Source: Psammoneis japonica
Taxonomy: Eukaryota
DNA length: 64,000 bases
Direction: 5' to 3'
NCBI GenBank assembly: GCA_008632985.1
Contig: QPGO01000026.1
Coordinates: forward strand, 620,001-684,000
Below, one piece after another: positions 20,110-42,509 of the stretch (position 1 is its first letter; each line of letters opens with the position of its first letter). The position numbers were made by a program, and so were the translations under genes. The notes under the pieces are model-generated. The model saw only the letters and a program-made list of their open reading frames with translations. It had not been told where the DNA came from and did no database searches.

Positions 20110-21160
20110 TTCAAAAAACACCACAAAAAAACCTTTGGCAAAGAAATCTGCAAGGTTGTTGGCAGAGATGGCAGATGAAATGTGAGACATGCAACTGCTG
20201 GAAGTGCCAGATGATGTCTCTTTTTGTCTGGCTGCATCTGACAAAAATTGCAGCACCAATCAAACAGCAAAGAACATCGTGCTTTGTGGCAAGCAACTCC
20301 TCTCTCATGTGTTCACGACTTGCATCATTCTTTGACAATGACGCACAAGTGGCGAGAGCAAAAAGGAAAATTTTGTTGCACAACAACACCTGGTGCATGA
20401 TGGCAGACAAGAAAGTCACAATCAAAGACTTCAACCAAACTTTTTGAAAAAATTCCATGATCTTGTTTGCATCTCAAGGCATGGACAAGTGGTGGCGCAA
20501 CTCCAGAGACACCAGCTGATGTTTTCAACAAATTTCAATCACCGCGCAATTGTCCACAGATTTTCATCAACATCTGAGATTTTGCCCATGCAGGAACCCA
20601 ATGACAAAATCTGAGCCTGAGATTGTGGCACAACAGCAGCCACTTGCACACATTTCTTGGTGTTGAAAACAAGTGTGCTGCACCATTGAATGTGCGCCAA
20701 TTGTTGCCATTGCACTCATTTGACAAACAAGTCTCGTTGGTTTTTTTTGCTGGTGATGTCAATGTCGTGCATTTGCGTGACACAGCCATGGTGTTTCACT
20801 CCTCCTCCAGTCAGTTTTTGTGGCCTTTTGATGGTGGCAGAGGGTGCCAAGTGGAGCTCCAGCATGAAGATGATTGCAGAATCTCCATGGAGTTGAAAGA
20901 GAAAAGTGGCAAGCTTGTGGTGGTTGTGAGAAGGGCTCTTTTGCCCAGACAGTTGTGCCGTTTCTTTGAGTTTGCTGGCGCCATTTCAGCAGAGACCACA
21001 GACATGGCTCATCTCTTTTGTGAGCAATGCAGGATTGCCAACCCAGTCAATCACCCATTGTTGACTTCAAATGGCTTGTGCGTCTCAGGAAGAGGGGTGA
21101 TTTCTTGTTTTGGAAGAAGTCAAGGTGGGGCTGTCCCAGCAAAAGAAAACAATCTCCAAG
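20110..21160 (+). pseudogene. Decayed duplicate of the upstream region and 5' CDS of the GNAT-like/ankyrin gene (~51845-52862)
   Basis: CQVELQHEDDCRISMELKEK...AISAETTDMAHLFCEQ vs YKVELQYEEDYRISMELKEK...AISAETIDMARLFCEQ; upstream non-coding DNA also aligns. Confidence 0.92.
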
Positions 21161-21283
21161 TCAACATCAGTGGTCATCTCAAGGGCACTCTTGCAAGTGA
21201 AGTCAAGGTTGATCTGCCCCAGCAAGAAAAGAATCTCCAAGTCAACATCAGCGGTTGTCTCAAGGGCACTCTTTTGCAAGTGG
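21135..21283 (+). repeat. ~68-bp tandem duplication (2 copies)
   Basis: aatctccaagtcaacatcag(t/c)ggt..tctcaagggcactctt..gcaagtg twice. Confidence 0.8.
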
Positions 21284-21421
21284 CAAAAATTGCACACCAT
21301 GACAAGTGCCGCTAACGCATCGTCTTGCAGCACTGTGCCTGTTGCAACACTGACTGCCAAACCTTGTGCATGTGATCCAACAGCATTGAAGCACATGCTC
21401 ATGTTTTAGATTTGATGAAAC

Positions 21422-22915
21422 ATGTTGGATTCATCAACAATGCTGCGGTTAAATGGCGACACTCACAGAAACACACAAAATGTGGCTCCAAAGCACAGCA
21501 TGACCCAGGAGAGGCAAATCGCACTTGTTGATCCCAAAGTCAACCTTTTGATTAATCCAGTGCTTAATTTGGAATGTGATGGGCATGAGACACTGCATCA
21601 CATTCTTGGTTGTGACCCCAGTTGGCACAATGTTTTTTGGAAGGTCAAGGCTTTCATCAAAATGGATGCCGCCAAGCAGAAGATTGAGAAGAACCACTGG
21701 GGCAAGCTCCCACAATGGGAGAAAGACATGTGTGGACAAAGGATTCTTGTGTTGAATGAGCAAAAGGCTGCTGTTCATGAAAAGTGCATGCAAGCAGCTG
21801 TCAGAACTGCAAAGTTGCCGCGATCATTTTCACCCATGCCAAAACAGGTCATGGAACAAACACCAGTCACTGCAGACATTGACGCCACCGGAGAACAACA
21901 GGCAGAGCCACATGGCAATGAATCTGACAAAAGACTGACATCAGCCGGTTTGTCAGAATTGTCAAAGATGTTTTTTAGAGGCAACAGCAGAAAGTGTTGC
22001 CCCAGAACTCCAGTGCTGCAGTCAGTGGAACAAGCAAGTGCCCCCACCAATGACAGCAGCTTGAGCTTCAATCTGAAAGCCACATCAATTTTTTCCCCAA
22101 CAGAAGAATGTCCAGCTTTGGTGGAAGATGCAGAACAGGCAAAAAATCTCAATCAAGAAGTCACTTTGCATCTGACAGGAACAAGCACAGCTTCTCTCAG
22201 CCAACAGGTGGACAGAGCTGCAATTGACTCAATTCAAGCACTGTTCAAGAAAGCAGGAACTGCTGCTGATGCAACACACTGTCCAAATCGACTTGACAAT
22301 GAACCATGTGTGCATGTTGTGTGCTTGGTGTTGAATGGGGTTGAACTTTCCAAGACTGATGGCAGACAATGAAGTGTGATTGACCTTCCTGCCAAAAAGC
22401 CGGGGGTGCTGTTGGTCACACATTCAGGGGATGACACAAGAAACCCTGCAATGCAAGCATTCAAGGCTGCCACTGGGGGCAAAACAAGAAGCAATGATTG
22501 TTTTAATTTTTGCCCATTGGCTGTGGGTGAGGACAGTTTGGTTTCATCTGTCGTTGAGAAGTGCGTCAATGTTTTCAAGAAGAGCCACACAAAACCATCC
22601 AAAAAGCCTCGAGCCTTCCCTGAAGTCATGCAAGAATTGTGAACAGACGTTGGATGAACAGCACGCAGCACTTCAACATCTGGAGCAAACTGCCAGCATG
22701 AGTCAATGTGCTGCCACTTTAGAAAAATTGATGGCCTGGGGATTGGGGTTGGGCAAATCTCATCAACTCGTGCCAAGTGGATGAATCAGATGATTGCATG
22801 GAGCATGCTGAGGAAGTGTCCTGAGACAGAGGGTGGTGCAGCTGCAGATGGATCAATGTGTTGCTGCTTGCATTCAATTGAATGCTTGTGCATGAAATGG
22901 GAGTGGACATGTTGA
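21422..22915 (+). pseudogene. Decayed coding sequence of unknown family
   Basis: Protein-like but Tyr-free 316-aa ORF continuing through TGA stops and frameshifts. Confidence 0.35.
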
Positions 22916-23422
22916 TTAACCAAGAAGATGTCTTGACCAATCGTGGCTTTTGGTTTTGCTTCAAAGTCTGCATTTTCAACAGCCCTCTCAGACTGTCGAC
23001 TTGCCCTGAACTCTTCCTTTTGTAACTGGCCATTTTGGATCTGTTGCTTGCATTGCTTGTCTTCCTGGAACAAGTTGGTGAACTTTTGATGCCTTGTTTA
23101 AACTCCCTTTGATCGGTTTTGGGTGTGCTGCAACGATTGCTTTTCATCTTTCCGGCTCTGGCTGACCTTTCACGCGTGCAAGCTCCTTGTCGAGTTCTGG
23201 AACAGCGCACGCACCGACTTGACATTGGCTCCCTAAAATTCTTTTCATGCTGCAGTCGTTGTCTCTCTTCCTTCCTTCTCTCTTGTTGCAGCAAAAGCAA
23301 CGGAGTCGCTTCGCTCCCCCTCTTCCCCCCTCTTCTTCCGTCGGTACCTCCCTATTTTCGGGTCTCGAGACGTGCACCTCATCGATGCAAGAAGGAGCTT
23401 CAAAGATATCTGTAGCCCCGAC

Positions 23423-24478
23423 ATGGACGGCGACGATGCCTCACGCTGCTCGTCGTTGGGCAGCGATGATCCCCTCGATCGAGATTGGCTTAGCGAATCC
23501 CTCCACAGGTTCGAATCTGTCCGCAGCGAGGAGGGACGAGCGCCTCAGCAATGGACAACGAACGCTTCGATGGAGGATAGGGACCGTACGATGATTCCGT
23601 TCACGATTGTAACGTGGAATCTCTGGTTCTCCCGCCACCAATGGCAGGCCCGCCTCGAGGAAGCCATTTGGCAAACGATCCGGGAGGAGCCGGACGTTTT
23701 TTGCTTTCAGGAGGTGACGACCGAGGTACACAGTTGCATGATCAATTGTCGGTATCTATGCGAGAAGTACGAGCCGACGGAGCAGCGTCTCCCACACTGC
23801 TACGACGTAGCGATATGGGTCAGGAAGTGCGAGGCCGGGCGCCGATCGTCACGATGGCAATGCAGAACAATTCCGTTGGAGAGCATATATGGGAGAAGGG
23901 GGCTGTGTGTTGATTTGGAGATCACAACCTTTCTAGATGGAAAATGGGCGAGTCGAGTTTCAAGAGTGAGAATCGTCACAGTTCACCTAGAAAGTGGAAG
24001 GGAAATGGCGGCCGTGAGGATACAGCAATTGGATTGCATCTTCTCTGACATCCGCAGTACTCCATGGTGCGTCGAGGAAAGACATAGGGGTGCACAAGAG
24101 AACAATCCAAAAGATGCGATAGGTACATCGATGCTCCTCGGGGATTTTAATTTGGACCCCTCATTCCCAGAAAACTCGCTGGTGGACTCGAATGGTATTG
24201 ATGTGTGGAAGGCTCTCCGTCCAAACGATGATGGATTCACTGAAGATACGAACAGGAACGAAATGAGATTCCTCGCGCACGGCAAGCACAAAAGGGCTCG
24301 TTACGATAGGGTAGTTCTTGTTCCTCAATGTGTGGGTGAACATGGTGTGAAAGCTCGACCATGTAGCATTGATCTCTTGGGTGCAGAACCATTTGATAAA
24401 AAGGGAGAAATGTGGGTGTCCGATCACTTCGGCCTCATCGCACATCTTTGGTTGAGTGAAAGAATTGTTGATTCATAA
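23423..24478 (+). CDS. Endonuclease/exonuclease/phosphatase (EEP) protein, TDP2-like
   Basis: VTWNLWF, PDVFCFQEVT, TVHLES, GDFN, RYDRV, SDHFGL; intact frame with normal TA/CG content. Confidence 0.85.
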   Translation: MDGDDASRCSSLGSDDPLDRDWLSESLHRFESVRSEEGRAPQQWTTNASMEDRDRTMIPFTIVTWNLWFSRHQWQARLEEAIWQTIREEPDVFCFQEVTTEVHSCMINCRYLCEKYEPTEQRLPHCYDVAIWVRKCEAGRRSSRWQCRTIPLESIYGRRGLCVDLEITTFLDGKWASRVSRVRIVTVHLESGREMAAVRIQQLDCIFSDIRSTPWCVEERHRGAQENNPKDAIGTSMLLGDFNLDPSFPENSLVDSNGIDVWKALRPNDDGFTEDTNRNEMRFLAHGKHKRARYDRVVLVPQCVGEHGVKARPCSIDLLGAEPFDKKGEMWVSDHFGLIAHLWLSERIVDS

Positions 24479-27400
24479 TCTTATCGTATCGAGAAAGAAA
24501 CTGCTGCTTTAGCCTCCTCAGTTAGCGATGGATATGCTACCCCATGAGGGACTGCTGGGCTCATTGAAATACAATAAGTTAGAGAATTGATCTTCGGTTC
24601 TCACTTCGTAGGAATTTTTCTTTACTTGGTTCTAAAGGAATACATAGTCTATGTCCCAACATGAATCTGCTATCTCATTTCAAGTAGCACTAAGCTGCAA
24701 ATCAGGGCACATATGTTTGAGTTTGCTTCCCTGACTGAGAAAGCGCTGCCATCGGTAATCACCATCCTCATCCTCCAACGGAATTATGTGGTTTGCCCAG
24801 GGCGATCCACAAACCAAACACTGCCCATCATTGCACGGTGGGACACTGTGCAGCTTGGCCCACAACCTGCGTCAGCACAATCTTCAGCTGGTGGAGGAAG
24901 AGGCGGTAAGTCTCCAACTGAACAGACCCCCGCCCTTGCCACTCCACGCATTAAGCAGGGCATCTCTCTCGAAATGTAGCATGGGAGCCTCTTTCCTAAC
25001 ATGCTCCTCCAGCAGAGTTGCCTTTTGGCGCTTCTTTTGTCAAGAGACAATGGAGCCTTGGCCTTCAGATCCCACTTGGGCATTGCGCTCCATGACAAGT
25101 CGGCACAAAGAGATGTCCACAAGGCCATGTGCGCACCACATTTTGGCAGCACATCCAGCCACTGGCCAACCCTTGTCAACCTGCAGTGATGCAGTGGCGA
25201 CATCTCCAGGCACTGCGTGGAAATGGCATGTCCCCCCCCACCAAAAAAAAAAAACTGCAGAAGCAGATGTTGAGATTTCATGTCTTTGCACTCATTGTTG
25301 AATGAAGGCCAAGACAGACATGCGGGGCACATTTTAAGCTCTTGCTGGACTCCAGCAATTGTGCTGTTCTCTTCCATCATCCCCCCAAATTCATCTCTCG
25401 CCTGTGCTAGAGCCTCGTGCCTGACCAGGTTCACTGCATCGTCAACATCTTCTTTGTCCCTTCTGTTGTGCTCATGTGGCATGTGTTTTGATCTCGCTCG
25501 TTTGAAGAAATGCATGGAACCCACAAGGGCTCCTTGCATCCTTCATTTGCGCAGGACTGCCCAGCTGGCAGCCCCCCCCCTCCCAAGTCATCAGAAAGCT
25601 GCAGTCTTTGGAAAACAGCATTGTTTCAACTCATCCTGCAATGCTGCATTCTTCTTGCCCACTTCTGGTGGGATCAATGAAAGATCTGCTCCAACTTCAC
25701 CCATCTTTGGTTGAGAGCAATCAGACGGATCACCATCCACAACAAATTTCTCAAAGCATTCAACGAATTGCTTTTCCCTGGCAGAGACAACACCAAGCAG
25801 CTCTGAGGATTGCCAGATCTCCCAGATGGTCTGACAAGGTCCAGCTGCTCAACTTCATGGCAGCTTGATGCCGAGCCACATTTTGAAAATGGCTTGGCGG
25901 GGATGACATGGGGAGGAGCACCATTGCCAAAACAATTGACATCTTGCAGACACAGCAAAATGGCTCACAGAACCACTCATTCACTTTCATTTGATGAGGA
26001 TCCTCTTGGCCAGTGATTGCTGCTGCAGCATTGTTAATTTTTCTGTGCCTTTGATTTTCACTGGATTTTGTGGCAACTTCGCAAATCCATTTGCAGTGTT
26101 TGGCATCATTGTTGCTGTGCACATGCTTGCCTGAGTTTAATCTGGCATGACCAACAATGTTCTCAAAAATGTGGTCTCTGCACTGGCTCTTGCCATTTGC
26201 AGTTTTGCGGAAGAGCAACAGCACATCCACATTTTCTTCTGAGCTTCACTGTGACAACAGAAATTGCAAAAGTGGTTGGCCATCAGAGAGACGCGCCCAA
26301 TTGCATGTCCTGCTGAAGCAAAGACTGCCATCAACCTCAAACCCAGTTCACAGTTCTCCACATCTGAATTTTTCTTGGCATGCTGCAGCACAAAATTGTC
26401 ATCATCAATTGAAGATGCAACCAGCAAACAAAGAATTGCTGGATGCTTCAAAGCCCGTCCAAGAATGTGGTCCAATGCATCAATGGGGCTGACTTCCACA
26501 GAATCAGAGTCATCTGCTTGAGTTCTAATGTGGCCTTGCATTGTGTCTGTGAAGATTGCATGAAGAATTGCCTTGTGACCCTTTTCAGCTTGACACGGGT
26601 TGCCAGGATTCAGCACCCAATTGAGTTTGCCTGGAGCGTCACGGCCAAGCAGCATGAAAAATTCCTCAATGAGGCACGGGCCCAACAGCAGGACATCAAG
26701 TTTCAAGCTTTTCATCTCCAGGTGAAAGCCCTTGGGTGCAACAAAACAGTTGGCAAATTCAGCGTTCTGCTGCTTCAAATTTTTTGTGACAATGGCGGGA
26801 TCACCATCGCATGCATTTGTGATGGATGCGTGTTTCATTGTTGGCTCCCCCCCAACTTGCAATTTTGGCATCGTCCTTTCCATGAGCAAGGATCAGCTTT
26901 TGAACCAAAGTGCTGTGCAAGAGAAGCAACTGATTTGCATGAGATGTTGATGAGTCCAGCTGCAGTGGCAGATCTTTGTCTCCAAGGTCAACACCCAGCA
27001 ACATTCTTTTCTCGTTGTCATCTTCCACCATTGGTGCTTGGCTGCCTCCACCCGATGGGGTGTCCCCTTTTTTGTCAGCCAAATGTGCATCTTGGTGACA
27101 CCAGTCATCAAATTCTGCACTCCAACTTGCTCCACAGCTTGCAATGGTCTCTGCATCTTTGCATGAAATGAGTCATCCATCGCTCTCCAATTTGATCATG
27201 TGTTCCAGCAAATGGAGCAATTCTTGGCCAACATGGTCTGCCACTTTTGCCAATGGCATTGCAACTTCTTTTGCACCAGGAAAGTCTGGTTTCAGAAGGT
27301 GGCACTCATCATGGCAAGCAATTTTTGTGGTGGTTTGTAAAAGCGCTTTTTTGCAACAAAGTCCAAACAGAACCGCACTGAGCAAGGTTGCTTCTCAGAT

Positions 27401-27904
27401 GAAACTCAAACTTGATGCTGCATCATGTGACTAACTTGCCACCACCTTTGAAGGATAAAGTGGCTGGGTTTTGGCCAAATGGACAAGAGAAGCAGTCTCA
27501 AAATGTGCAAAAAATGCCCAAGGTGTTTGTGTTGGGAAGTGGAGTTGCTGTCTTGGGCAAGTCTCCATTTTGTGCAATTGCACCATTTCAAGCTCAAGTG
27601 CAGGTTGTTGCAAACAGCCATGAGAAGCCTCCAAAAACTGTGTCCAGTGGCAATGGTGTGGAGCAAGAGGTCACACATCATGCAGAGAGATTGAGCCCAA
27701 TCTGCAGAGGCCTTCTTCCTCCAAATGTGACAAAAAGGTGAGACACCAACAACCTGGGTGTCCCACCTGCCGTCAAGAATTTTTGAATTGCAGCCAAGGA
27801 ACTTTTCTGTTTGATCCAAGACTGCGCTGATTTGTCAAACCTGCAATTGCAAAACATTCAAAAACAAATGTCTTCATCCCTGAAGCAAACAATTTCTCTG
27901 CTGC

Positions 27905-28860
27905 CTCAGAGGTGCACAAATCGTCTGTTGTCGTTCGCACATGTGCACTCGCACACTCAGAGTGCGCACGAACAACAAAACGATGAGGTGGCTCACGCTG
28001 GTGTGTTTCGCTGTGACAGCGTGCGGTTTTGAGAGAATTTTTGTGGGGTGAAAAGCGGTTCGATCGCCAAATTCTTGCACAACATCACGACGCATCGACA
28101 ACGCATCATGCAGCTTTCTTTCGAAAGCAGAGCAGTGGCACCTCGACTTGGGGCTTCCTTCTCCATCCATGACATCTGCTTCATTTGTGATGGCAAGTGA
28201 GGTGCAGCAGGACTGTGGTTTGTGGAGAAAATGTGTGATTTAGACTTGCAGCCTGATTGTTTTTTTCTTTGCATTTGCTGTCCGGTGTTTCGTCATTGGC
28301 TTCTCTCAGGATTGATTTTCACCGGAAAGTGCACATTCCAGGCATCAAACACGTCACAAGTGACAGCACATCAAAGGTGTCTGGCAGTGTCATTGCTGTG
28401 AGTTGAACCCGAATTGGTGTGGTGGCAACTGCCAGTGTTTTTGGCTGAAGCAAAATGGAGTGCACTCTGCATTGAGCGCGTTTCTTCCGCTTTCTGCGGT
28501 TTGTGGCTTTGTCATCTGCATGTCAAAGAAATGCTCTCAAGTGCTCCATCATCCATTTCTTGTGCTGCCATGACCATGGGTGACATCTGTGAGTTGATCG
28601 AAGCCAAATTGCTTTGGTTGCATCCATTGTTTGGGTGATTCAAAACAGCACGCATTTCTTGCGAGCTCGTGCTCTCCACTTTTTGCAGCTCATGGTTTGG
28701 ATGGCTGCATGTTAAAGACACATTCTCACAGACTCTGTCATCTGTTTTTTTGTTGTTGCCAAGGAAGCATGTGTGGGTTCATTTGACGATGATGACTCAC
28801 AACGGCGCGCAGAGCCTCATGTCTCATGAGCTTGTGTTTTCTCTGCTTTGTAAAGTGCAT
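27905..28860 (+). repeat. Long repeat, inverted relative to ~32460-33790
   Basis: 28141 cctcgacttggggcttccttctccatccatgacatctgcttcatttgtgatggcaagtga matches the reverse complement of ~33405-33465; match extends both ways. Confidence 0.85.
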
Positions 28861-30246
28861 TGCTCTTGAGGCTGTGGGACCTCGTAGCTGTGCTTTTTGA
28901 ACAGTCAGACGACTTCATGATAATTTGGTTGAAGGATCAGATTTTTCAAGAGCAATTGCGGGAAAGGGGCATTTGAATTTGTGCCGTTTGTTGGCGCCAT
29001 TGTTCTTCTGCTGCTGTCAAATGACCATGACATGAGAACCGTGGCCCTGACGTGTCTGAAGTGCATGCCAGAGGTGGATTCTTGCACATTGTTGAGAGAA
29101 CTCCTGAGTGCAAGTGGTCGAGGGTTGCCAGACAGAGTCATCAATCCTCAATCAAGGAGCACAAGTTCTGTCGACATCAAGCATCATGACACGAGTTTGC
29201 AAGTGGAGGGAGCAGCAGAGTTGTTGGATTTTGTCGAGACACTTCCTGAACAGCCTCTCTGATCTTTGGCTGACTGACAGCGGCCTTTGCCCTTTTGCTG
29301 TGCACAGAAGAGCAGAGGACATTGCCGGTTGAGAGAGGTTGAAGGAGAGACGAGCTGAATTGATCGCCAATGAAATGCCAAAAAGAACCCGAACAAAACT
29401 GAATGGTTTGTTTGGGATTCTCAATTCACTTGGACTCATTTCCTGCCCTGCCTTGAAGCCCTGTAAAGAAGGAATGCCCAAAGCCATGTGGCAAAAGCTG
29501 CTCCAGGGCCCTGCTGTAGAGGGCCCCATCTCTGCTCAGCTGGTGCTCTCTGCTGGGACCCAGCTAGAGAGACGAGAGAGTGCGCTGCCCTCTGGAGCAG
29601 AGTCTGCCCACCTGTCGCTGGCTGAAGCAATGATCCGCGCCAATGGAAAACATGGTGCAAGCACTCTCCAGTGGTCACCTCGAGCACAACACTGACATGG
29701 AAACAGGTGCACTTCCACACTTTGATTGTTGCAGCCAAGAGGGAACATGTCCACTTTGTCATGACACTTGCAACACAGCCTCAAAACAGCAACAGTTTCT
29801 GGGTGACATCTGAAGCCACTCTCCTTCTTGTCATCAGACTCATCTGCTCCATTCACAATCCCCTTGTGCACGGTGCTCAATTTCTGCACCAGTTGGGCAA
29901 CAGATGGCACCAACGGACCGGTCCATTCTGGAACAATGCATTTGCATCATCTCTTTCATTGTCCACTGCTGCTGATGATCTCATGATGTCCCCAGCTGTC
30001 CTTTCTGAAGTGAAAGAAACAACAATGCCTTGGACATCCTTTCTTGATGCCAACGGCACTTGCATGTGTCCATGCATGTTGTCTAAAGCAGCATTTTCCT
30101 CCACGACAATGCACTCAGAATCATGCACAACACCCATGCCATGGGCAGTGTCTGCATCCATGGGAGTGGCAATGTTGCCAAATGCCCCTCCAACCCCCAG
30201 GCAAAGGTTCCAACTGAACATGCCTCCATCATCTGCACTGAGGCAC

Positions 30247-31281
30247 ATGGACTGCCTCATTCCCATCCTCTCCATCAATTTGAGGTAAAAATGATGCCTT
30301 GCAACAACCATTTCACCTTTTCCTTTGAACCCTCCCCCAAGCAGACAAACAAATGATGCTCTCAATGCAACAGCAGATTCTTCGTCCCATCTGGAATGTG
30401 ACAATGACCCAACAATGGATGCGGCATTTGTGTGTCAACACACTGCTTCACAATGTTGGCACAGCACTTTTTGCATTTGCTCCAATTGCATTGGCGCAGA
30501 TCATGTGTCAGCAACTGTGACCTTGGCATGTTGCATGGAGCAAATGACACCAGCACAAGTGATTTTGCTGCTGGGCATGACAGAATGTGGATGCAAACTT
30601 GTCATTTGGTGCGCATTGCGTCACGGCGAGTTTGGAGAAATTTGGATTTCGCCCCATAAAAATTCTCTCAGAACCGCACATTGTCACAGATCTTTTTGTC
30701 GCTCATCCACGTCCGTGAGCCCAGAGGTGCACAAATCGTCTTGTCGTCTGCGCGTGTGCTTCCTTGTGCACAATCAATGTGCAAACAACAAAACGATGAG
30801 GTGGCTCATGGACGCAGAAGGGCTGCGAAAGCTCTGTGACAACGTGCTGCACGTGAGAGAATGTTTGTGGGGCGAAGTTCCAAATTTTTGCAAATTTGCC
30901 GTGACGCAACGCGCACCACATGACAAGTTTGCATCCACATTCTGCCACACCCAGCAGCACAATTGCTTGTGCTGACATCATTTGCTCCATGCAACATGCC
31001 AAGGTCACAGTTGCTGACATGTGATCTGTGCCAATGCAATTGGAGTGAATGTAAAAAGCACTGTGCCGACACTGCAAAGTGTTGCATTGACACACAAACG
31101 CCGCATCCATTGTTGGGTTGTTGTCGTGTTCCGGGTGGGATGAAGAAATCCACTGTTGCCTTGAGAGCATCATTTGTTCATCTGCTTGGGGGGGGGGATT
31201 CAAAGGAAAAGGTGAAATGGCTGTTGCAAGGCATCATTTTTACCTCAAATTGATGGAGAGGATGGGAACAAGGCAGTCTGT
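30247..31281. mobile_element. ~1.03-kb foldback/MITE-like element: ~445-bp inverted arms (30247-30690, 30833-31281) around a ~140-bp core
   Basis: Arms align end to end (cccatcctctccatcaatttgaggtaaaaatgatgccttgcaac vs its reverse complement at ~31224-31267); no TSD identified. Confidence 0.85.
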
Positions 31282-31299
31282 CAGCATCTTTGGGGCGAG

Positions 31300-32290
31300 A
31301 TGGCAAAGGGATGTGAGAAGTTTGGCCGCCGGGGTGTTGAGCGGTCATTCATGGCGCAGCTGCACAAATTACAAACAGATCTTGAGAGGATGGCAACTCG
31401 CCATTCGATTCTTCCAAAGGCTCTGCAGGTGGAAACTGCGGCTGACGGCACATTGCAAAAGCTGTCAGCTTTCCACGCACTTGTCGTTGACTTTGTTGGC
31501 TCCAACTTTCAAGAAGAATTCATGCAAACTCTGGACAACACTGTGGCCGACGGCATCTTCCAAGAGCCATGGAGCACAGATGAAATTGTTGAAAAAGCAA
31601 TGGCCAAAGACAACAAGAGATGGGAAGCAATCGCGTCATCAGCAGACAAAACATCTCAAGAGGACGCAAACAAGGAAGTGACGTGGTTCCTTGGCTGGGC
31701 AACAGCGAATGTGTGCAACCACTTTGAAACAGACTCTGAGGATGAAAAACAAGCAACAGCAATTCTTGATGAGATGGTCATTGACAAAATGGAGCTGAAA
31801 AGCTCAGCACCATCCGTTCAAGAAATGGCACATCCCAGCATTCTCAAGCTGAAAGACGAGTCTCGAGGCCACGCCGGAAAAGAGGACTGCACCCTTGTGT
31901 CTCCAAAGTTTTTCTCTTTTGGTCTGCAATTGCTGGCTGCAATCCATGGTTTCTTCAATGAAACAACAACAAAGAAGCTTGGCGATGATGGCGCGGCAGC
32001 AGCATGCGAGAAACTTGCCAACGAGGCGGTTGAATTGAGGTGGAATGATTTCACAATGTTGATTCCAGAGAGCGCATGCAACAGTGAGTGCGATGAAACC
32101 ATCGAGAGCCTTTTCGTCTTCATTGTCCAAAAAACATTTGTTGCACGTGCATCGTGAGTCGTTGATGATTTCCGGGAGGAACACACCAGCAGGTGTGCAT
32201 CAAAAGCCGTTGATGTTGCATTGCGGGAGGGATTGAAGGCAGTGGCAAAACGGGCAAGCAAAAAAGAGGATGTTGGCAAAGGAGAGTGAA
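31300..32290 (+). pseudogene. Decayed coding sequence (285-aa Tyr-free ORF), family unknown, possibly TE-borne
   Basis: Protein-like composition; frame appears to continue past TGA 32155-32157. Confidence 0.4.
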
Positions 32291-32459
32291 TGACAACAAT
32301 GCACCTTTCAATCTTGCCTTGCTGTTCATTGCCACACATTTTAAGAAGCAACACATGGCAGTCCAAACCACGCCAAAGCACATCCATGAAAACAGCACAA
32401 TGATGCTGATGCCGATGCACGGCACAAGCAAGACTGCCCACTCTGCTTCAAATGGGTCC

Positions 32460-33790
32460 CTTGAAGTTTCCCATGGCAATGGCACAAGCAGCAAACAAAA
32501 GAGTCCGTGAGAGCCTTTCTTTCACATGCAGCTGGTTGTCCAAGCCATGCACGGCAAACAGCAGATGAGACAAGCTCACAAATGTGCGCCACTTTGCTTC
32601 TCTCAAACAACAGATGCAACCAAGCCACTTCAGAACGAGTCAACTGACAGATGCTTCCTGTGGTGATGGCACAAGAAACAGATGATGGAGTCCATGAGTG
32701 TGTGTCTTCAACATGCAGCTGTCCAAGCCATGAACTGTAAAAAGTGGAGAATGCAAGCTCACAAGATGTGCGCACCTTTTTTTGAATTGCCGGGACACCC
32801 GATGCAACCCAAGCAATTTGGATTGAATGAACTGACAGACACTTCCTGTGGCAATGGCACAACAAATGGACAATGGAGCCCGTGAGAGTGCAACAATCCT
32901 TTGACATGCAGCCATCCAAGCCATGAACCGTAAAAAGCAGAGAGTGCGAGCGCACAAGAGCTGAGTGCCATTTTGCTTCGCCCAAACAACAATTGAAACC
33001 AACACAATTCAGACCCATCAACTGACAGATGCTTCCTGTGGCAATGGTGCAACAAACAGAAAATGGAGTCCGTGAGAGCATTGCTTTGATTTGCCCAAAC
33101 CACAAACTGCAACAACAGGAAAATGCAAGCTTGCAAGAGCTGTGCACCGTTTTGTGTCACCCAAACAAGACATGCAACCAAACCCATTCGGATTTGATCA
33201 ACTTGCAGTTGTGACACTGCCAGACCCCTTTGACATGTTGTAACTTGGAAGATGTTTGATGCCGGGAATGCACTCTCACCTGGCAAAATTCATCCTGAGA
33301 GAAGCCAATGACGAAACACCTGACGGCAACAACAAAGAAAAAAACACTGAGGTTGTAAATCTAAATTGCACATTTTCTCCACAACCAACAGCCCCACTGC
33401 ACTTCACTTGCCATCACAAATGAAGCAGATGTTGTAGATGGAGAAGGAAGCAGCAAGTTGAGGTGTCACAGCTCTGCTTTTGAAAGAGAGCTGCATGATG
33501 TGTTGATGATGCATGGTGTTGTTGTGTGAGATTTTGGCGATGAGCCACTTCTCGCCCCATGAAAATTCTCTCATGTGTGGCACGTCGTCACAGCCAGAAG
33601 TGCTGCCATGATCCGCCTCATTGTTTTGTTGTTCGTGCACGCACTGAGTGTGCAAATGTGCGTGTGCGAATGACAACAGACGATTTGTGCACCTCTGCGT
33701 GAGCCACCTCATTGTTTTGTCGTTCGCGTGTTGATTGCACACAAGGAAGCACACGCGCGGACGACAAGATGATTTGTGCACCTCTGTGCT
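32460..33790 (-). repeat. Inverted partner of 27905-28860, with ~4 x ~189-bp and 2 x ~90-bp tandem units
   Basis: aactgacaga..cttcctgtgg at ~32642, ~32830, ~33020; gatttgtgcacctctg at ~33682 and ~33771. Confidence 0.8.
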
Positions 33791-35986
33791 GCCTGTGCAA
33801 GACTGCCAGGTGATTTGTGTCTCCATGCCAAGTTCTGAATGAAACACAACTGAACATCCTGGATCAAAACCTCTCCAGTCATGCATCAAGTCAAGCTCTT
33901 CTTTGCTCCAAATGTTTTGCTCTTTCTCCATGTCATTCTTTGTTTTTGTGTGATGCCCCTCGCGCTGCTCTTCCTCATTTGTTTTGCCATCTCAGCACAG
34001 CACAAAGTGCGCTCTTTTGGCCCTGCTCCTTGCCAGCTGATTGCTGCACTGTGTGTGATCAACATTTGCTTTTGTTGCATTTGCCTTGCTGTTTGTCCAA
34101 CATGCTTCATTGGGGATGCAGTCTGATGGCCTTGTTCTCCTTGATGCAAACATTCTGGGTTCAGTTCCATGCATGGTCTTGCCCGGCATGTTGCTGCCAA
34201 CTGTCTCCGTTCCATGGGTCCGACCAAGTCTTTCAGTTGCCTGCATTGCACACTGAGTGGTTTCAACTCCAAAACCAAGTGCAGCATCACCTCTCCTGCC
34301 ACTGCACCACTTTTCTGCTGTTCTCTCTTCACCAGGAACACAGCAACATTCAAGTGCCAAAACATCCTCCCTTTCTGGTGGTGCACTGCTTTCTTCACTT
34401 CCTTGGGATGTTGCTCCTGTTGCCTCTCTTGCGCACAGCAGCAATGGCAGACCCAAATGATCTCATTGCCAAGCTCCCTTTTCCAATGTCACCCTTCATC
34501 TCCAGAAGCATGCTCCCTGCCAAGAGAAGGAGGAAGCTCCCCAACAATGCTCTTCTGCCATCTCAAATCCCCCCAGCTCATTTTCCCCTGCAGAGGACAA
34601 CTCATTTGGCAACAATGACTGCGACCCAATGTCTGGCTTTGCCGATGACACCCCCCCCCACCACCCACCCATTCCTGAAGTCCTTTTGGACCCAGATCCT
34701 CCTCCTCCCATGGCTTCCAAGAATGCTCCTCCTGTCAAAGTGGGGTGGCTTTCTTCAGCATTTCTTGGCCAAATGTTGCTGCATCCTTGCCTGCCCAACA
34801 GGTGGCGAGGACAACACTCCTCAGTGCCATGTGCCTGACTGCGGGGAAAAGCAGATGACAAGCAACCACCAAACCAGCACAGCCACCACCAGCATCAATG
34901 AAGCTGAAAGTGCTGTTTGACCTGCAGCCAAACACAGGGGTGAATGGCCCAAAACCTCAGGGCCAAAGTGGAAATCACATGCCCCATCATGTGATTCTGC
35001 ACCGCAACCAGGAACATGACCAAGTTGATGCTTGGCATTTGGTGTTGTGGTGCAGGGAAGCCGCACTCTGGCAGTTGTGGACATTTGACACAAAACCGTG
35101 CCCACTTGACAACCATGTCATTTGAAACAAAGTGACAAGAAACAATTGTGTGTGAATTTGTGGCAAAGTGGGTTGGCGAATGTGATGTGTGGTGTGTGCA
35201 CGTTCATTGTTCAGAGGAAAACAACAGCTCTTTTTGGGTGACAGTGGCAGCAGCTGGAGAAGAAGCACAGCGTTTGTTGGGATGAATCAAACTGCAATGC
35301 ATTGGCAGAGCAAAGGTGTCAAAAATGTGGAGAGTGTGTCCAACTCAGATGTCAACATGAAACTGCAATGAGAGTCACAGAATTGAAACACACAAAAAAT
35401 GTCAACTGGTGTGTGTGTGTGTGTGGCTTGTGTTGCAATGCAATTCAAAACAGTGGAGGGTTTAAAAAAGTGCAAATGTCAAGTTGGAAACAAGCTCAGA
35501 AATCTGATGCAGATGTCATTTTGAATGAATCTGGGGAAGGGAACAACGGCACAATGGGAGAAGATCACTTGCAAAGTGAGCTCATTTTGCAACTTCTCAT
35601 GTCACAAACTGGACAGGATGGGCAAACAGCGCAGCACAAGAACTGCCTGTTGGAACAGGAAAGAAGATGGAGGAGATGGTTGTCATGGGAAATTCCATGC
35701 AAGATGGTGGGAGCACCACATCCAGCAGCAAGTTGGGTTGGAGAGAGGGACAGAGAAATGCAGAAGCACCAACAAGTTGCTGTCCACCATTTTGGTGTTC
35801 TTTGCAGTCACCATGAGTCCAGCCACCATGAGTCCAGCAGCAGGCAGCAGGATTGTTCAATGCCTGAACACAAATGAGTGTGAAGAACTCAGCTGCTTCC
35901 AGTTGGCAAGCAGAGACTCCAGCTCTGTTGTGACTCCAACGGAGGGATGTCATGTGCCAGATTGAGCTGCAGCAGTTGTCCAGAAG

Positions 35987-36590
35987 TTGACAGGGTCAAT
36001 GTTGATGAAGGTTGTCAACAAAAGTGTGTGGCCGCATCACAAGTTCACAATCTTTGACAAGGAACTTGCAGCAGGAGGAGCGCACATGAAAATGGTTCTG
36101 CAAGAGTCAAGGAGCACAACATCTTTGCCAGAGGCATTCTGGTGTGAATGCAAAGAGGTGTTCAGAAAAACTCAACCACAAATGGAACAATGTGCAGGAC
36201 AACACAAGGAGGAGAACAGCAGGTGGGCAAAACAGCACATGTGTTTGCCAGTTGTGCACAGGATTGTCCAGTGGGCAAAGTGTCAGCTCTTTTGTTTTTG
36301 TCAATGCAGCTGCTGCTTTGGAGGGGCTGCTGGTTCAGTGTGATGATGTGATCAAGGGCAGGGCAGACAAAGACACACGTGTGTGGTTCTTGGAAACAGT
36401 GGCACCAACTGCGGTGGGCCAAGTGCAATTTGGCAGAAGCAATGCAACAGATTTGCTTGGAGAGAGGCTCGCCACATCATCAAAGGCCTTTGCTTTGCTG
36501 GCACACGTAAACTGCCATGTCATGGTGCTGGTTGACACAGCGGAGAAGTTGGAGAAGGGTGCAACAACATTGCAGGGTGCAGGAAGATGA
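35987..36590 (+). mobile_element. Decayed ORF resembling accessory proteins of diatom DNA transposons
   Basis: VWPHHKF...FW...KLNHKWNNV and ATSSKAFALLAHVNCH recall a 'T.SDEAFALL..ENY'-type motif; family from memory, unverified. Confidence 0.3.
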
Positions 36591-38688
36591 TGGCAGAAGA
36601 TGCAAAACCATCAAAGCACACGACGCAGGAAAAAGGGAAGTCAGCTGAGAGGGCCAAGGATGGGGCAAGGATGGGATTGCAAAGCACAACAAACTGCGCA
36701 AGTGGGTGACAAAAGACAGAGAGGAGAACAAGTGATTTGGTGCATGGCTCAAGGAACAGAGGCAAGAGAAGGCAAAAATGTCTGATGAGGTGGAGAAGGA
36801 GCACAAGAGAGAGGAGAAGAGGAAGGAGAGAGAGGACGGATGGGCCACTCTGAAGGGAGAAAACCTGCTTCCAGCAATGGCATGGAAGCAATTGCAGCCA
36901 TGGCAACAAACCAAACTGGCGTGTGAATGCAAATTGCAGCAAACAACAAAACCTGGAATGCAACAAAAACAAAGAGGCAAACTGCAAGGCAGCTGGCAGT
37001 CAACAACACATGGCAGTTGCAAGATTTGCTTTTGATGCAACAATGCAAGGAGACAAAGTGGTGCAGAAAGAAGTTGCAGACATGGAGGGTGGACCACAAG
37101 TGGTGAGAGATGCATGCGATGAAAGCAGTGTTGACCAATTGCCAGGATTGACTGCAATCAGCCTCACTTTGATTGCAATCGCTGTTGCAAACTTGATTGC
37201 AATGACCTGATTGTCAGGAAAGAGCTGAGGTGGCAATCACAATCGACTGTTGCAATTGATTGCAATCGAAATTCGAGCTCTTTTTACAGCCAAAACAAGC
37301 AAAATGGCTTGCAATCTGTTCATCAGACCACGCAATTGCTGCGCAAATTAAAAATTGGCCAATTGCTGTTCCACAGCAATGCAATTGACTGATTGCAATC
37401 TGATTGCTGCAGAAAACTTTGCAATCAGTTGACCCTGGATGAAAGTGCAAGGAACAGCAAATGACAAAAAAGGCTGAGAGAAGAAAATCATGGGCAAGAA
37501 CCAATGTTGGCACTTTTCAAAGTGGAGTGGAAACCAGAGTCAAGAAGCTCACAAACTCAGCTGGTTTTCAACTGATGTTCAAAGGAAGGCTTGGCTTGTG
37601 AGCTCACAATTGTCTGGGGCTGAAGTCAAGAAATGCCCAGATTGTGACAGGTGGTCAGATGACCCAGATTGTCGTCACCCCAGATGTGTTCAAAAGCTGA
37701 AGCCAAAGCACATGACTCCCAGGGAATGAGCCTGTGCACCAGATTCCAAGATTTGAAACATTTCTTGTTGTGCTTTGACACACCAAAATGTGATTTGTGC
37801 TGGAGATTTTGATGGCATGGCAAAAATGCAGTTGCCAACTTGATGTGGCTCAAAGAACTTCTGGTGTGTTTTGTGTTTTTTGCTCATGGGCGAACCAAGA
37901 GCCAATGTCAAGACTTTGAAGCCAACAAGACCTTCAAGTCACAGTGCAATGTGGCATGCAAGGTTGTTGCAAAAGCCCTGGCATTCAGAAGAAAAAAAGA
38001 GTTGCAGTGCTGGGAAAGACAGCCAATGGATGCATCCCACATGTGGAGGATGCAAAGTTCTGAAATGAAATTTGGAACAGGCACCTCGACTCACAAACAG
38101 GGCCTCATGTGGTCATGCATGATGCGCCCAACATGCCTGTGCCCACACCCTCTTCAGGTGACATGAACCATGCCCTGCCCATCTCCTGCCATGACATGCA
38201 CTGTGCAACAGCTGGTGTTGCTGCGCAACTCTGTTGGCAGACATTCGGGTTGCCTCTGGCTGCCGGTCACAGTGGCGGAGATCCGCCAATCAAGGACACT
38301 TGGCAAGGGCACCGGTGGGGTGGTGAAGCAGCCAATCTTGGTGCAAAGAGAGATGGCGGGACAGAGCATGGCCGAAGTTTGCGATTGTTGCATCTTCTCT
38401 CTCTAGCACTGCCAGGTGCTGGTGGCTGGCACATGGCCTCCGCATCACGCTGCACAGAATGACGCATGCAAAATCTCACATGGGTTGGCACTTGCTGCTA
38501 AAAATGAACTCTGCCGGGAAAAAGTCAAGAGAACGTGGTGGATTGACGGATGGTGTTCGAGCACCCCTGTGGCAGGGGAGAATGTGGTGATGTCATGGTT
38601 GCATGGCAGTTTGTGTCCCATTCATTGCATTTTTGCACAAATGTTCTTACATTTGTTCATGCATTTGTACACAAATGCTGACAGTGGC

Positions 38689-40658
38689 AGGAAAAATCCT
38701 GAACCAAGTTCTCCCCTAAAACTCCAACCACCAAAAACTGAGGGCACAGAAGCACATTTTTGGCAGCGCTCTTCTCCACACAAAAAACATGCGTTTTGAC
38801 AACTCGACCATGATGGTGCCTCATGGTTCTTCCCCATCGCCTTCCCAGGATGCCGATCCCACTGATGCCATTGCCAATGACACTGATGCAATGGGTGATG
38901 TCATTGTTCCAGTTCCCGTGGGTGCGACACATGCAAAATGAGATGCCACAAACTCACACTGTTGTTTGCATGCTCCACCGCCTCCCACAGACACCATCAC
39001 AAATTCCAAAGCTGCACCTGTGTTTTGGGCCCCTGGCATGCCTGACACTGTCACTCCTGCCCTCACTGCTGCGTGCGCTGTTGACACTGTTGTTGTCTTT
39101 TGCCAATGACGTCCACAATGAAATGCCAACAACTCACACTTCTTTCATTCTTGCCCCACCACCTCCCACAGATGCCATCACAAATTCCAATGCCGCACCT
39201 GCATTTCGGCCCCCTGGCATGCCCGGCACTGTTGCTCCTGCCCTTGCTGCTGCAGGTGCTGTTGACACTGTCATTGTCTTTTGCCAACAACATCCACAAT
39301 GAAGTGCTTGCAACTCACACTTCTTTCATTCTCGCCCCACCGCCTCCCACAGATGCTGTCACGAATTCCAACGCTGTTCCTGCGTTTTGCCCCCCTGGCA
39401 TGCCCGACACTGTCAATCCTGCCCTTGCTGCCACAGGCACTGTTGACTGTTGTTGTTTTTGCTTTGGAAGGAGCACAGTGGATGATGGCTGACCAGGAAA
39501 CCCATGCAACCACGGCCTGCTGATGGACGACACATCAATGGACATGAACAGCGCCTCTCAGTCAGCGCACGAGCGTGGTCCAATCTTTAGAATGTACAGA
39601 CACATTGTGCAGCTTTCTGCAAATTAGAAACCTGGTGACAATTGGATGGCAGGCATGCTTTCACAGTTTTTTAGTTTCAAGTTGGAGAGGTTGGCGAGTT
39701 GGCACTTGTTTGCAGGTGACTTGGCAAGGTTTCAAGTGGTGCATGTGACTTGGACACTGCTCTGGGTCATTGTGTGCAATTCCATGAGAGGCCACTCTTG
39801 CCATTTGAGTTCCACATGTGGCGCACAACACACTGTTTTTGCAAGTTGCCAAAACAGAGGCAGGTGGCAACGTGCTTTTGGCAAATGCTCGCTGTGTTTG
39901 TCACTGTCAGACCTTCAAAGCTGGTGCCATGTCGACAGCTGTGCTGCTGCTTTGCATGCCGGCACCTTCTCTGCCCGCATTCCATTGGCTGCATCCTCCT
40001 TCACATGTTGCTGCAGCTCATCTTGACACCTGCTGTCAGCTCCGATTGGCTCCACTGGGCTCTGGGTGAGCCTCAATCACCTCCAGATGGAGGAAGTTCT
40101 GCTTGGGAATGATCATCCTGAGAAAAGTTGTCACCACACCTCCTGTCATGGATGCTCCTCTGCCACGCCCACGCCCATGCAAGGAGTGTCGACCAGCGCA
40201 CTGGTGCTCGTTGATCCTGTGTTTTCGTTGTTCCAAGCAAAATCGCCTCGCTCTGCTGCCACCAGGCCCGCTTGCATCCATGGCAGTTGGAGCACGAGTG
40301 GGATTGTTCGCCTTGTTGTTGCATTGTGCTTGACTGCAGTGCTCAATGACAAATGGCGGCAATGTCGTCCACGTTCAACCTTGGATCTGATGAAAATGGG
40401 CCCAAACTTCAGGATCGCAAATGGGCTGCAACAGCGGGTTTGACGGTGCCGGCCAATGTGGGAGAGACTGCCGTGTCAGGAACGGCAGGCGGGTGTGCGT
40501 CAGGTGGTGTGGGGGACGAAGAACGGGAGGTCGTCATGGTCGAGTCGTCGAAACGCGTGATGTTTTGGTGTGTGCGCTGTCTTCCAAAAAGTGCGCTTCC
40601 GCACCCTCGGTTTTTGGTGGTTAGAGTTTTAGGGGAGCTGTGGAACAGGAATTTTTAC
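38689..40658. mobile_element. ~1.97-kb DNA transposon remnant with ~150-bp terminal inverted repeats
   Basis: 38691 gaaaaatcctg...ctcccctaaaactccaaccaccaaaaactgaggg...ctcgaccatga matches the reverse complement of ~40510-40658; superfamily and TSD not resolved. Confidence 0.8.
38937..39452 (+). repeat. ~181-bp tandem repeat x3 (probably a decayed ~60-aa coding repeat)
   Basis: aactcacact, cctcccacaga, cccctggcatgcc, ctgttgac recur in units starting ~38937, ~39117, ~39298. Confidence 0.85.
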
Positions 40659-40990
40659 TTATGGAATATACACACATGTGGATATTAACATTGAAACTCA
40701 ACGTACGGCGACGAAGCCGTGCGCGCGCAACCACGAACACAACACAGCTCCCTGTGGTGTTCGAGTTTCGCGTAGTGCGTGGTCTACCGGTACCATATCA
40801 TACTGTTTGATTATTCTTCGCCATCTGTTGTGCTCGGTAAGTATAAGAGGGGGAGGTCGACAATGGTGGTAAACTAAGCGACTGACCGACTGACTGATTC
40901 AATTGTCTTGTCGCTTAACTCTAGCCTACTCCATCATTCCACCAGATTGAAGCAATCCGAACTCTCTCTTCCTCTTCTGTTGATATCATC

Positions 40991-41593
40991 ATGAAACTCT
41001 ACACAACCGCCATTCTTACCCTCTCGGTTCTAGCCAACATGGTCTTTGCGTCTTCGGATCTGATGGAGATGGAACAAGACTATAACAACCTTCGTGCCAA
41101 CAGCAAGTACGACCAGAATCACCGTGGCAACCTCTTCTTCTTGCACGGTCATCCGCGCTGGTGGGACAAATGGTGCCGCTGGGCCTGCAAACTCGAAAGC
41201 AAGACTCTGTGCGTCGATAAGTGGTGCAAGTCGTCACCCATTACTTGTTCTATTACAACTGGTTCTCCTATCTTTGCCAATCAGGACTTAGCATTCAATA
41301 TCGCTTTTTCGAATGATTCGAGTGAAGAAGTCACGCTCGCTGCAGGCTCGTTTTATGAAGTTAGCGACTCTAATGGAATCGTGGTAGATGCAGAGGGAAC
41401 AGGGGATTTCCCGGAATTCCCGCTTTCCCTGGAAGGTGTAAAGGTTAAAGGTGGGGCTGCTAATCAGGGGGGCTTGGGCACAACCATTCCAAGTGGTTAC
41501 ACAGTCGTCGGTACCTACGAAATTGAAGTTGTGTTCAATGCAGAGGGTCAAGGATTTTGCACTGCAGAAGTTAATGTCGTGGCTAATATTTGA
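40991..41593 (+). CDS. Secreted 200-aa protein of unknown function (beta-sandwich-like C-terminus)
   Basis: ATG in good context, signal peptide MKLYTTAILTLSVLANMVFAS, normal TA/CG content. Confidence 0.7.
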   Translation: MKLYTTAILTLSVLANMVFASSDLMEMEQDYNNLRANSKYDQNHRGNLFFLHGHPRWWDKWCRWACKLESKTLCVDKWCKSSPITCSITTGSPIFANQDLAFNIAFSNDSSEEVTLAAGSFYEVSDSNGIVVDAEGTGDFPEFPLSLEGVKVKGGAANQGGLGTTIPSGYTVVGTYEIEVVFNAEGQGFCTAEVNVVANI

Positions 41594-41923
41594 GTAAAAT
41601 GCAGTGCACCATGAGCATAGAAGAAGAAGAAGAAATGCGTGTGAAACAAACAAAAGAAGATTCGAATGACGATCAGTGGAGCAATGCATGGGATACAATT
41701 TTTAAAATAAGCAGATAACGTGAAGGCCACACGTCATATCAAAGGTGCGCGTGTTATTGATTTGCAATAGACAGCCCTTTTAATCTCTCGAGGCACAATT
41801 GCTGTCTCCATTGGTGCTGGCGGTTCCCTCCAGGTTGTCTCTGAAAGAAACGTTGAGGTTCTGCGTCTGTTACATTGATGCTGGAGATTGGCTGGATGCA
41901 GTTTGAAGCGAGCAATAAAGGAG

Positions 41924-42074
41924 GAGGATGCGAGACAATCACGGGATGACTCTGATGCCGCCATGGGGATAGAGTCGTCTCTCTTGGCACGAGATAATGA
42001 TGTGATGCCAGAGTTAGAATTCATTTCGATGCTCACGCCACAGTCCATGCAGGAGTCACATTGATTGATGGGTG
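41924..42074 (+). pseudogene. Duplicate fragment of the ankyrin gene (53602-53747)
   Basis: gaggatgcgagacaatcacgggatgactctga.gccgccatggggatagagtc nearly identical; CpGs largely retained. Confidence 0.9.
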
Positions 42075-42509
42075 CTGCAGTGCTTGTTGTGCACACGATG
42101 GCATCAAATCAATTTTCTCTGTGCCCTCTGCTTGTGCTTGATGTCCTTTTCCAGATCATCATCAAGAACAACAACAACAACACCTTGGGGAATGACCACA
42201 CAATGTCTTCCTCTTCACAGCTGCTGCACTTGCAAGAACAGATGGAATCAAGCCCTGCTGGTGATGGCTCATGCCGGCGCCATTTTGGCGATTCACAATG
42301 CAACACTCCCAAACCATCACCACATTGTCAGCATCCTCAAACTCTTCCTCATTGGCCGTCATGGCTGCCAGACAACAGCTTGACCTGGTGCAATTTTTCC
42401 ATTTTCCTGAAACAGCGTTCAAAAGGTGGCCCAACAAGTGCAGCAAGCCAAACACCTCATGTGTTGGTGCCGTGCTTCACCCACACCACAATCCAATGAA
42501 AAGAGGCAC
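42075..42509 (-). pseudogene. Decayed duplicate of the 3' part of the 54837-55844 gene (54789-55216)
   Basis: AAMTANEEEFEDADNVVMVWECCI vs AAMMANEEEVEDTVNVVMVRECCI. Confidence 0.9.

Follow-up and report, generated by a model that had tools for sequence, protein, structure and literature searches.

TpA loss is more complete and wider-reaching than CpG loss in sharply bounded domains of a diatom-like genomic sequence

Introduction

Fungal RIP changes C to T at CpA, enriches TpA and leaves AT-rich isochores, and it mutates both copies of a duplication. TpA-directed hypermutation has so far been described only for one chlorarachniophyte, Bigelowiella natans, in one 2026 preprint (Mettrop et al., bioRxiv 10.64898/2026.01.13.699255). 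According to that preprint, TpA changes to TpG or CpA at a roughly 1000-fold raised rate in mutation-accumulation lines, only an integrated giant virus and a virophage are affected, 124 clusters of TpA-poor, CpA+TpG-rich 1-kb windows are counted, and an ADAT2-like deaminase is proposed (10.64898/2026.01.13.699255). The words ‘CpG’, ‘diatom’, ‘trinucleotide’ and ‘neighbour/neighbor’ do not occur in its text. A full-text literature search returned no report of TpA-directed hypermutation besides this preprint, and none for diatoms; PMC12730594 was discarded as a precedent, as it deals with TA target-site duplications and not with TA hypermutation. With respect to cytosines, diatom transposons are described as CG-methylated in dependence on DNMT5a (PMC9998398).

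We analyzed a stretch of 64,000 nucleotides, hereafter referred to as the window. An earlier note on this DNA had claimed, from a manual count over positions 31300–32160, that TpA loss is uncoupled from CpG loss and more complete. We consider it likely that blocks of silent DNA in a diatom-like eukaryote have been reworked by TpA hypermutation together with a nested, patchy decay of CpG.

Results

TA-free domains and the region 31300–32160

Domains were delimited from binned composition and from the spacing of TA sites. Four sharply bounded TA-free domains of 1.8–15.6 kb were obtained (Table 1). Within them the observed/expected ratio (o/e) is 0.04–0.07 for TA, 1.56–2.03 for CA/TG and 0.25–0.49 for CG, and GpC is raised to about 1.2–1.3; outside, TA is at 0.47–0.64 and CG at 0.85–0.96. 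G+C is the same or slightly higher in the domains (0.48–0.50 vs. 0.46–0.50 outside). The edge at 40622 illustrates how sharp some of the boundaries are: the 950 bp that precede it lack TA, and nine TA occur within the following 80 bp.

The manual count for 31300–32160 (861 bp) proved exact. The region contains a single TA, at 31370, when 56.7 are expected from base composition, and 34 CG when 49.5 are expected (o/e 0.69); CA and TG stand at o/e 1.53 and 1.60. At the rate of ordinary DNA (o/e 0.54, about 30.6 TA expected), the Poisson probability of finding one TA or none is 1.6e-12. Its CG content is mildly low compared with the ordinary DNA of the window (P = 0.03) and far exceeds the level of the CG-poor neighbours (o/e 0.22; P = 1.7e-8). 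The same combination of few TA and retained CG, which the earlier note had also placed at about 40.2–40.6 kb, at 45.1–47.1 kb and at domain edges, was recovered by computation at each of these places, namely in the right edge zone of D2 (34 CG), in the CG-keeping sub-unit of D3 and in two sub-zones of D1 (Table 1).

Several other features of the domains were recorded. At 47000–48500 and 17000–18000, TA depletion is intermediate (o/e 0.15–0.24) and CG normal (0.8–0.94), which makes these stretches candidate zones of an incomplete or ongoing TpA process; a 333-codon open frame (47644–48642, minus strand) lies inside the former. Strong strand asymmetry was found at 36001–38000 (purine/pyrimidine, GC skew +0.19, AT skew +0.22) and at 42001–46000 (GC skew −0.19 to −0.21, AT skew −0.14 to −0.25), and is not accounted for by the TpA process. 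Runs of N at 43309–43314 (6, inside D3) and 58832–58835 (4) correspond to assembly gaps. Contigs of runs X1 and X2 connect position 23205 to 25586 through 13 letters of other sequence; judging from this junction, with 28 letters on its shorter side, another copy of the surrounding repeat may lack the unmutated island, which would perhaps be a later insertion.

Table 1. Features of the window, with their coordinates and, where available, TA and CG observed/expected ratios
Feature	Position	Strand	TA o/e	CG o/e	Remarks
KAS II gene	3403–4873	−			Fatty-acid synthesis; short introns; adjacent to and divergent from KAS III
KAS III gene	5659–6982	+			Fatty-acid synthesis; short introns
Intact DUF6824 gene	7158–7700	−			
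Intact DUF6824 gene	9420–10007	+			
Intact DUF6824 gene	50645–51262	−			
DNMT2-like (tRNA cytosine-38) methyltransferase gene	11439–12560	+			Intronless; only C5-methylase domain of the window
Domain D1	14012–22917		0.06	0.39	CA o/e 1.79, TG o/e 1.71
CG-retaining sub-zone of D1	14012–15001		0.10	0.82	
CG-retaining sub-zone of D1	16992–18431		0.16	0.76	
Unmutated island, D1/D2	22918–24996				ORF 23237–24475, weak Exo_endo_phos match
Domain D2	24997–40622		0.04	0.36	Includes the 181-nt array (probable satellite) and a high-copy repeat
Unit holding region 31300–32160	27917–33766		0.05	0.51	
N-terminal relic of the same large protein	29952–30457	−			About 160 residues; tblastn, P0140 residues 3–29 and 50–162, E 4e-8
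Full protein relic	31252–32262	+			tblastn, P0140 residues 1153–1481, E 7.8e-32
ORF of region 31300–32160	31300–32157	+			ATG to TGA; 285 codons (aa); Tyr-free
Right edge zone of D2	40157–40622		0 TA	0.91	GC 0.57
Unmutated island, D2/D3	40623–42014				ORF 40925–41590
Domain D3	42015–48370		0.07	0.49	
CG-keeping sub-unit of D3	44555–48370		0.09	0.71	Includes the DUF6824 pseudogene copy
Hypermutated DUF6824 pseudogene copy	45026–45454	−			
Ordinary gene-bearing DNA	48371–62194		0.54	0.95	
Unmutated reference paralogues	50715–51128, 51495–51831, 52351–52862, 53602–53747, 54789–55212				
Domain D4	62195–64000		0.06	0.25	Truncated by the window end

Genes and repeats of the window

The genes in the ordinary DNA are eukaryotic, have few and short introns, and encode a DNMT2-like methylase, KAS II, KAS III, an amidohydrolase, an ankyrin protein and three DUF6824 proteins. 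For KAS III, five of the 120 best matches name an organism, in each case a diatom (61–67% identity), and DUF6824 clusters are most frequent in Bacillariophyta. Judged by these matches, the sequence of the window is diatom-like and not that of Bigelowiella natans. An open frame of 668 aa in ordinary DNA (56687–58693, plus strand) appears to be rich in charged residues; Pfam gave no match for it, nor did a word-indexed search of 5.8 billion proteins return a relative.

Pfam was run on 87 stop-to-stop frames of at least 110 aa, taken from 164 listed ones after leaving out the shorter of overlapping frames, and gave zero matches in frames within the TA-free domains. What could be recognized in the domains are pseudogene pieces, derived from the neighbouring DUF6824 gene, from the ankyrin gene and from one more gene, and accompanied by their upstream DNA. 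A scan for tRNA genes found none in the window, nor was any viral hallmark or any ADAT2/TadA-like deaminase found encoded in it; a scan of viral contigs with an ORF of 680 aa yielded no relatives.

Two tandem arrays were noted in D2. The first (38971–39513) is TA-free and consists of three copies of a 181-nt unit that are 62–85% alike. It coincides with the highest summed contig depth of the window (5200–6400, vs. about 30 for single-copy DNA) and is probably an abundant satellite. The second (32452–33203) comprises four units that recur about every 188 nt, are 65–85% alike, and lies within the right arm of the inverted-repeat element described below.

A broken protein-coding relic within an inverted-repeat element

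The ORF that spans the region 31300–32160 gave no match in the word-indexed protein search, but a later exhaustive phmmer search identified nine relatives (best E 6.6e-27, 34% identity over residues 3–284), a homology that rules out a chance open frame. Scanning viral contigs with it found no relatives, and scanning metagenome contigs gave 24 pattern matches, none of which was confirmed. A single-sequence AlphaFold model reached a mean pLDDT of 35, too low to be used. As to frame length in general, a frame of 313 codons is by itself not unusual in TA-free sequence, being reached in 22 of 60 order-2 simulations; frames of at least 300 codons are in excess (3 observed vs. 0.17–0.53 expected).

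By homology, the ORF corresponds to the C-terminal domain of an uncharacterised protein family, of which it is a relic without any Tyr. A read-through translation, with X at the stops, was used to align the relic with its relatives. Since the homology runs past the in-frame TGA at 32155–32157 into the conserved C-terminal motif of the relatives, the gene is broken. An N-terminal relic of the same large protein sits in the opposite arm of an inverted duplication. P0140, the family member used as query, has 1481 aa and shows a sub-threshold TNP-like RNase H match (23.7 bits vs. a cutoff of 24.6), so the protein from which the relic derives may have been a transposase.

The unit that holds the relic is bounded by inverted repeats of roughly 800 bp (27907–28717 and 32899–33697), whose arms differ at 66 transversions in 818 columns. 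The unit may best be read, tentatively, as what is left of a DNA transposon after internal deletion and partial inversion.

Paralogous copies reveal the changes and their direction

A self-comparison of the window identified six segments of which one copy lies in ordinary DNA and the other in a TA-free domain. Among 72 TA of the unmutated copies, 51 stand opposite CA or TG and only 5 are kept; for CG (n = 123), the corresponding numbers are 74 opposite TG or CA and 31 kept. The sixth pair, located at a domain edge, is nearly unmutated. Expressed as rates per strand, A>G amounts to 0.37 at TpA vs. 0.07–0.12 in other contexts, and C>T to 0.30 at CpG vs. 0.07–0.10 at CpH. As the conversion of TA to TG/CA replaces A:T by G:C and that of CG to TG/CA replaces G:C by A:T, neither can be a by-product of the other. 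The claim that TpA removal does not result from CpG deamination is hence borne out, both of these opposite transitions being visible in the alignments. Creation of CG through double hits at TA was also considered and set aside, as it accounts for only 1 of the 72 TA. Read in the reverse direction, 17 of 55 CG in the TA-free copies face TG or CA in the normal copy; some gain of CG in the TA-free copies is, short of an outgroup, inseparable from loss of CG in the reference copy.

Copies that are both TA-free were compared as well. In seven such pairs, consisting of inverted-repeat arms, tandem units and dispersed copies, discordant dinucleotides of the type CA vs. TG number 72, and the next class 9. 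This dominance indicates that the copies resolved their TA or CG sites independently, after duplication. The protein relic points in the same direction of change. Tyr makes up 2.1–3.6% of seven aligned relatives of the ORF, which come from other sources, and is absent from the window copy; at positions where the latter has His, the commonest residue of the relatives is Tyr in 10 cells. Because these outside relatives contain Tyr, the change corresponds to a loss of TA in the window copy.

These data bear on the alternative that no mutation took place at all, the domains being either foreign DNA that is natively poor in TA and CG or a sequencing or assembly artefact of modified DNA. We regard it as very improbable. 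TA-containing paralogues and Tyr-containing relatives exist, a native coding sequence cannot be devoid of every Tyr codon, and the CA/TG discordance between copies, along with transversions and indels, represents old and real divergence. Furthermore, contigs of one public DNA run, possibly the source of the assembly itself, match the TA-free sequence exactly at a single-copy depth of about 30–35, and related copies in these contigs differ by 753 transitions vs. 184 transversions. What speaks for the alternative is that the sequence was found in this run only, which may be the assembly's own and for which the library type is not recorded. Coverage by a second run of the same sample, the kind of which was guessed, is concentrated on the unmutated islands and is thin at the few places of the domains that it reaches; no RNA run was listed as containing the stretch.

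CG loss is nested within TA loss

TA and CG o/e were computed separately in 500-bp bins (n = 128). With TA-low defined as TA o/e <0.2 (63 of 128 bins) and CG kept as CG o/e of at least 0.5 (18 of these 63), 45 bins lack both dinucleotides, 18 lack only TA, two lack only CG (bins 8501 and 24501) and 63 lack neither (Fisher P = 2e-17). TA-only zones are therefore present. At three edges the TA-free zone extends about 300–700 bp past the CG-poor zone, and the density in the domains relative to normal DNA is 0.089 for TA and 0.448 for CG. TpA loss is thus both wider-reaching and more complete than CpG loss, as had been claimed, and we infer that it is also the faster of the two. The word “uncoupled”, in turn, holds in part only: zones that lost TA alone do exist, but TA and CG depletion correlate strongly over the window as a whole (Spearman 0.79), and 45 of the 47 bins low in CG fall within TA-low DNA, which shows that they are nested and not independent. 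There are two processes, with a common target (putatively silent repeat DNA) and a different reach and rate.

Could a single shared exposure produce the same picture if only its duration differed? TA and CG would then decay at a fixed ratio, and the TA-only zones would be the youngest insertions. Such a reading gains from the weak correlation of residual TA with residual CG within TA-low bins (Spearman 0.32–0.39), and a fast TA clock is plausible in view of the rate in B. natans, which is about 1000 times background. It also agrees with the fact that CG level is set by discrete units, as with nested insertions of differing age: change-point segmentation of CG density alone divides the domains into units at CG o/e 0.17–0.26 or 0.38–0.91, with 33767–38216 as an example of a CG-poor one, and its cuts at 27917 and 33766, placed blind to repeats, coincide with the ends of the inverted-repeat element. 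Divergence between copies argues otherwise. Paralogue pairs with 5.8 and 8.4% transversions kept 20 CG and converted 15 to TG/CA, and pairs with 3.1, 4.3 and 8.2% kept 6 and converted 58 (Fisher P = 5e-7, not counting cells changed to other dinucleotides); TA was lost in all pairs. The CG-keeping pairs are thus not less diverged than the CG-losing ones, and the arms around the region 31300–32160, in spite of their 66 transversions, enclose a unit at CG o/e 0.51. CG loss varies by sequence unit, and transversion divergence is no predictor of it. As such divergence measures time since duplication and not time since silencing, a pure age reading of CG retention is weakened by these data, and we judge a time-only explanation unlikely in comparison with two processes of different rate. 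Copy number was rejected as a cause of CG loss, summed contig depth and CG o/e being uncorrelated over 25 TA-free bins (Spearman 0.11, P = 0.60).

Sequence context and strand of the changes

The survival of TA in the domains depends on its 3′ neighbour. As a fraction of normal density it is 0.024 for TAT, 0.063 for TAC, 0.116 for TAG and 0.172 for TAA; ATAT and ATAC have no survivors, and TTAA survives at 0.34 (chi-square P = 3e-16). Among the 51 TA events of the paralogues, the changed A is followed by Y in 37 and by R in 14, compared with 26 and 25 for the spared A (P = 0.04). The TpA process, these figures suggest, prefers TAY, bearing in mind that the context of surviving TA could be shaped in part by new TA arising from CA/TG. 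Decay of CG is strongest at A/T-flanked sites (density ratio 0.25–0.34), and GCGC is spared (0.98), which is the pattern expected of spontaneous 5mC deamination. With respect to strand, adjacent TA events fall on the same strand in 19 of 46 cases, against a shuffle mean of 21.8 (P = 0.85). The outcomes on the two strands are therefore randomly interleaved, as expected from many single-site events in DNA rather than from one edited transcript.

Editing of double-stranded retroelement transcripts by an ADAR-like enzyme, fixed through reverse transcription, is for this reason extremely improbable: both strands are hit equally and without order. Among the mutated sequences, moreover, are satellites, a relic resembling a DNA transposon, and pseudogene copies together with the DNA upstream of them; the block edges are sharp against the flanks. 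ADARs prefer a 3′ G, and the preference found here is for a 3′ Y. The feature in common is the 5′ U preference, typical of ADARs according to the Discussion of the B. natans preprint (10.64898/2026.01.13.699255).

TpA is its own reverse complement, which makes deamination of the adenine indistinguishable from oxidation of the paired thymine. A change on the pyrimidine side has hence to be weighed too, in which a TET/JBP-type dioxygenase would oxidise thymine at RTA to 5-hydroxymethyl- or 5-formyluracil, and the product, mispairing with G, would lead from T to C. In favour of this route, T>C at RTA equals A>G at TAY in the palindromic TpA, 5-formyluracil promotes T>C mutation, and dinoflagellates and kinetoplastids are known to hydroxylate thymine at TpA. 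We nevertheless hold it to be rather improbable; the authors who described the B. natans system favour, as a proposal, an ADAT2-like adenine deaminase (10.64898/2026.01.13.699255).

Discussion

Reworking of silent DNA by TpA hypermutation and nested CpG decay, the explanation favoured here, can be laid out as follows. The target blocks would be silent DNA that holds satellites, the remains of a transposon and pseudogenes copied from genes nearby. In a first process, TpA would become TpG or CpA (A to G, on either strand), nearly to completion and with an end within a few bases of the block edges; its chemistry would most likely be the enzymatic deamination of adenine to hypoxanthine in DNA. In a second one, CpG would become TpG or CpA, most likely by deamination of 5-methylcytosine in methylated repeats. 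This would be slower and proceed unit by unit, some units, that of 31300–32160 included, lacking TA yet keeping at least half of their CG. By analogy, the CG methylation of diatom transposons fits this layer. As both processes yield TG/CA, the 1.6- to 2-fold excess of CA/TG would follow.

Taking together the diatom-like character of the window and a TpA signature that matches that of B. natans, a second lineage with a TpA process has probably been found. It is possible, and we advance it as a tentative proposal, that diatoms, and by extension much of SAR, own a methylation-independent, TAY-specific base-editing defence acting on DNA, with a narrower layer of CpG decay inside. Under such a defence, no editable TpA would be left in transposons, satellites or dead copies of genes, the edges would be sharp to tens of bases, and algae would possess a functional equivalent of fungal RIP whose chemistry is the opposite one (A:T>G:C). 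If this is true, the process is old or recurrent across distant algal lineages and separable from cytosine methylation, and genomes can be screened for its signature (TA about 0, CA/TG about 2-fold, TAY preferred). It would then matter for the annotation of transposons, because Tyr-free, Pfam-blind relics get missed, bear on models of dinucleotide evolution and help the hunt for a natural DNA adenine editor.

Comparison with known systems brings out what is shared and what is particular to this locus. As in RIP of ascomycetes, and in the TCG-directed RIP-like process of Pucciniomycotina, context-specific transitions destroy repeats and leave sharp compositional domains. Unlike in RIP, TpA is here the depleted dinucleotide and G+C is not lowered in the domains, and mutation has affected the paralogues in the domains but not the gene-bearing copies at 50.7–55.2 kb, in which TA and CG are retained. 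Fungal RIP can accordingly be ruled out, as its chemistry is the opposite one and it affects all copies of a duplication; with unmutated paralogues lying within 5–30 kb of mutated ones, simple repeat-triggering of the RIP kind does not fit either.

Decay of CpG driven by 5mC shares with this locus the CpG-specific C>T changes, the excess of TG/CA and the strongest decay at A/T-flanked CpG. The removal of TpA is, however, beyond its means; it explains the CG part only, the footprint of which is a subset of the TpA footprint. Editing by ADAR or APOBEC3 is comparable in that deaminase-type, context-specific transitions are directed against selfish elements, and in the 5′ U preference of ADAR. It differs in that strand coordination is absent here, the targets are at the DNA level and not retroelements, the 3′ preference is for a pyrimidine, and A>G and C>T follow separate dinucleotide rules.

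The closest system is the one of B. natans. The changes are likewise confined to TpA becoming TpG or CpA (here 51 of 72 TA, and A>G at 0.37 against 0.07–0.12), the TpA-poor, CpA+TpG-rich windows cluster likewise at the kb scale, as in the four domains. In B. natans the targets are transposon-like or otherwise foreign stretches with poor annotation, and those of the window may be of a similar kind, the TNP-like match of the relic described here being sub-threshold. In the B. natans preprint, a subset of CDS has a TpA frequency of about 0.002, which is the level of our domains, and the giant-virus (NCLDV) insert has a Rho of 0.45 (10.64898/2026.01.13.699255); the depletion reported here is, by contrast with that insert, saturated over blocks of 6–16 kb. 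Unlike in that chlorarachniophyte, the organism is here diatom-like, and the targets include satellites and pseudogene copies of host-type genes. To the features described in the preprint, the window adds the nested decay of CpG and the preference for TAY.
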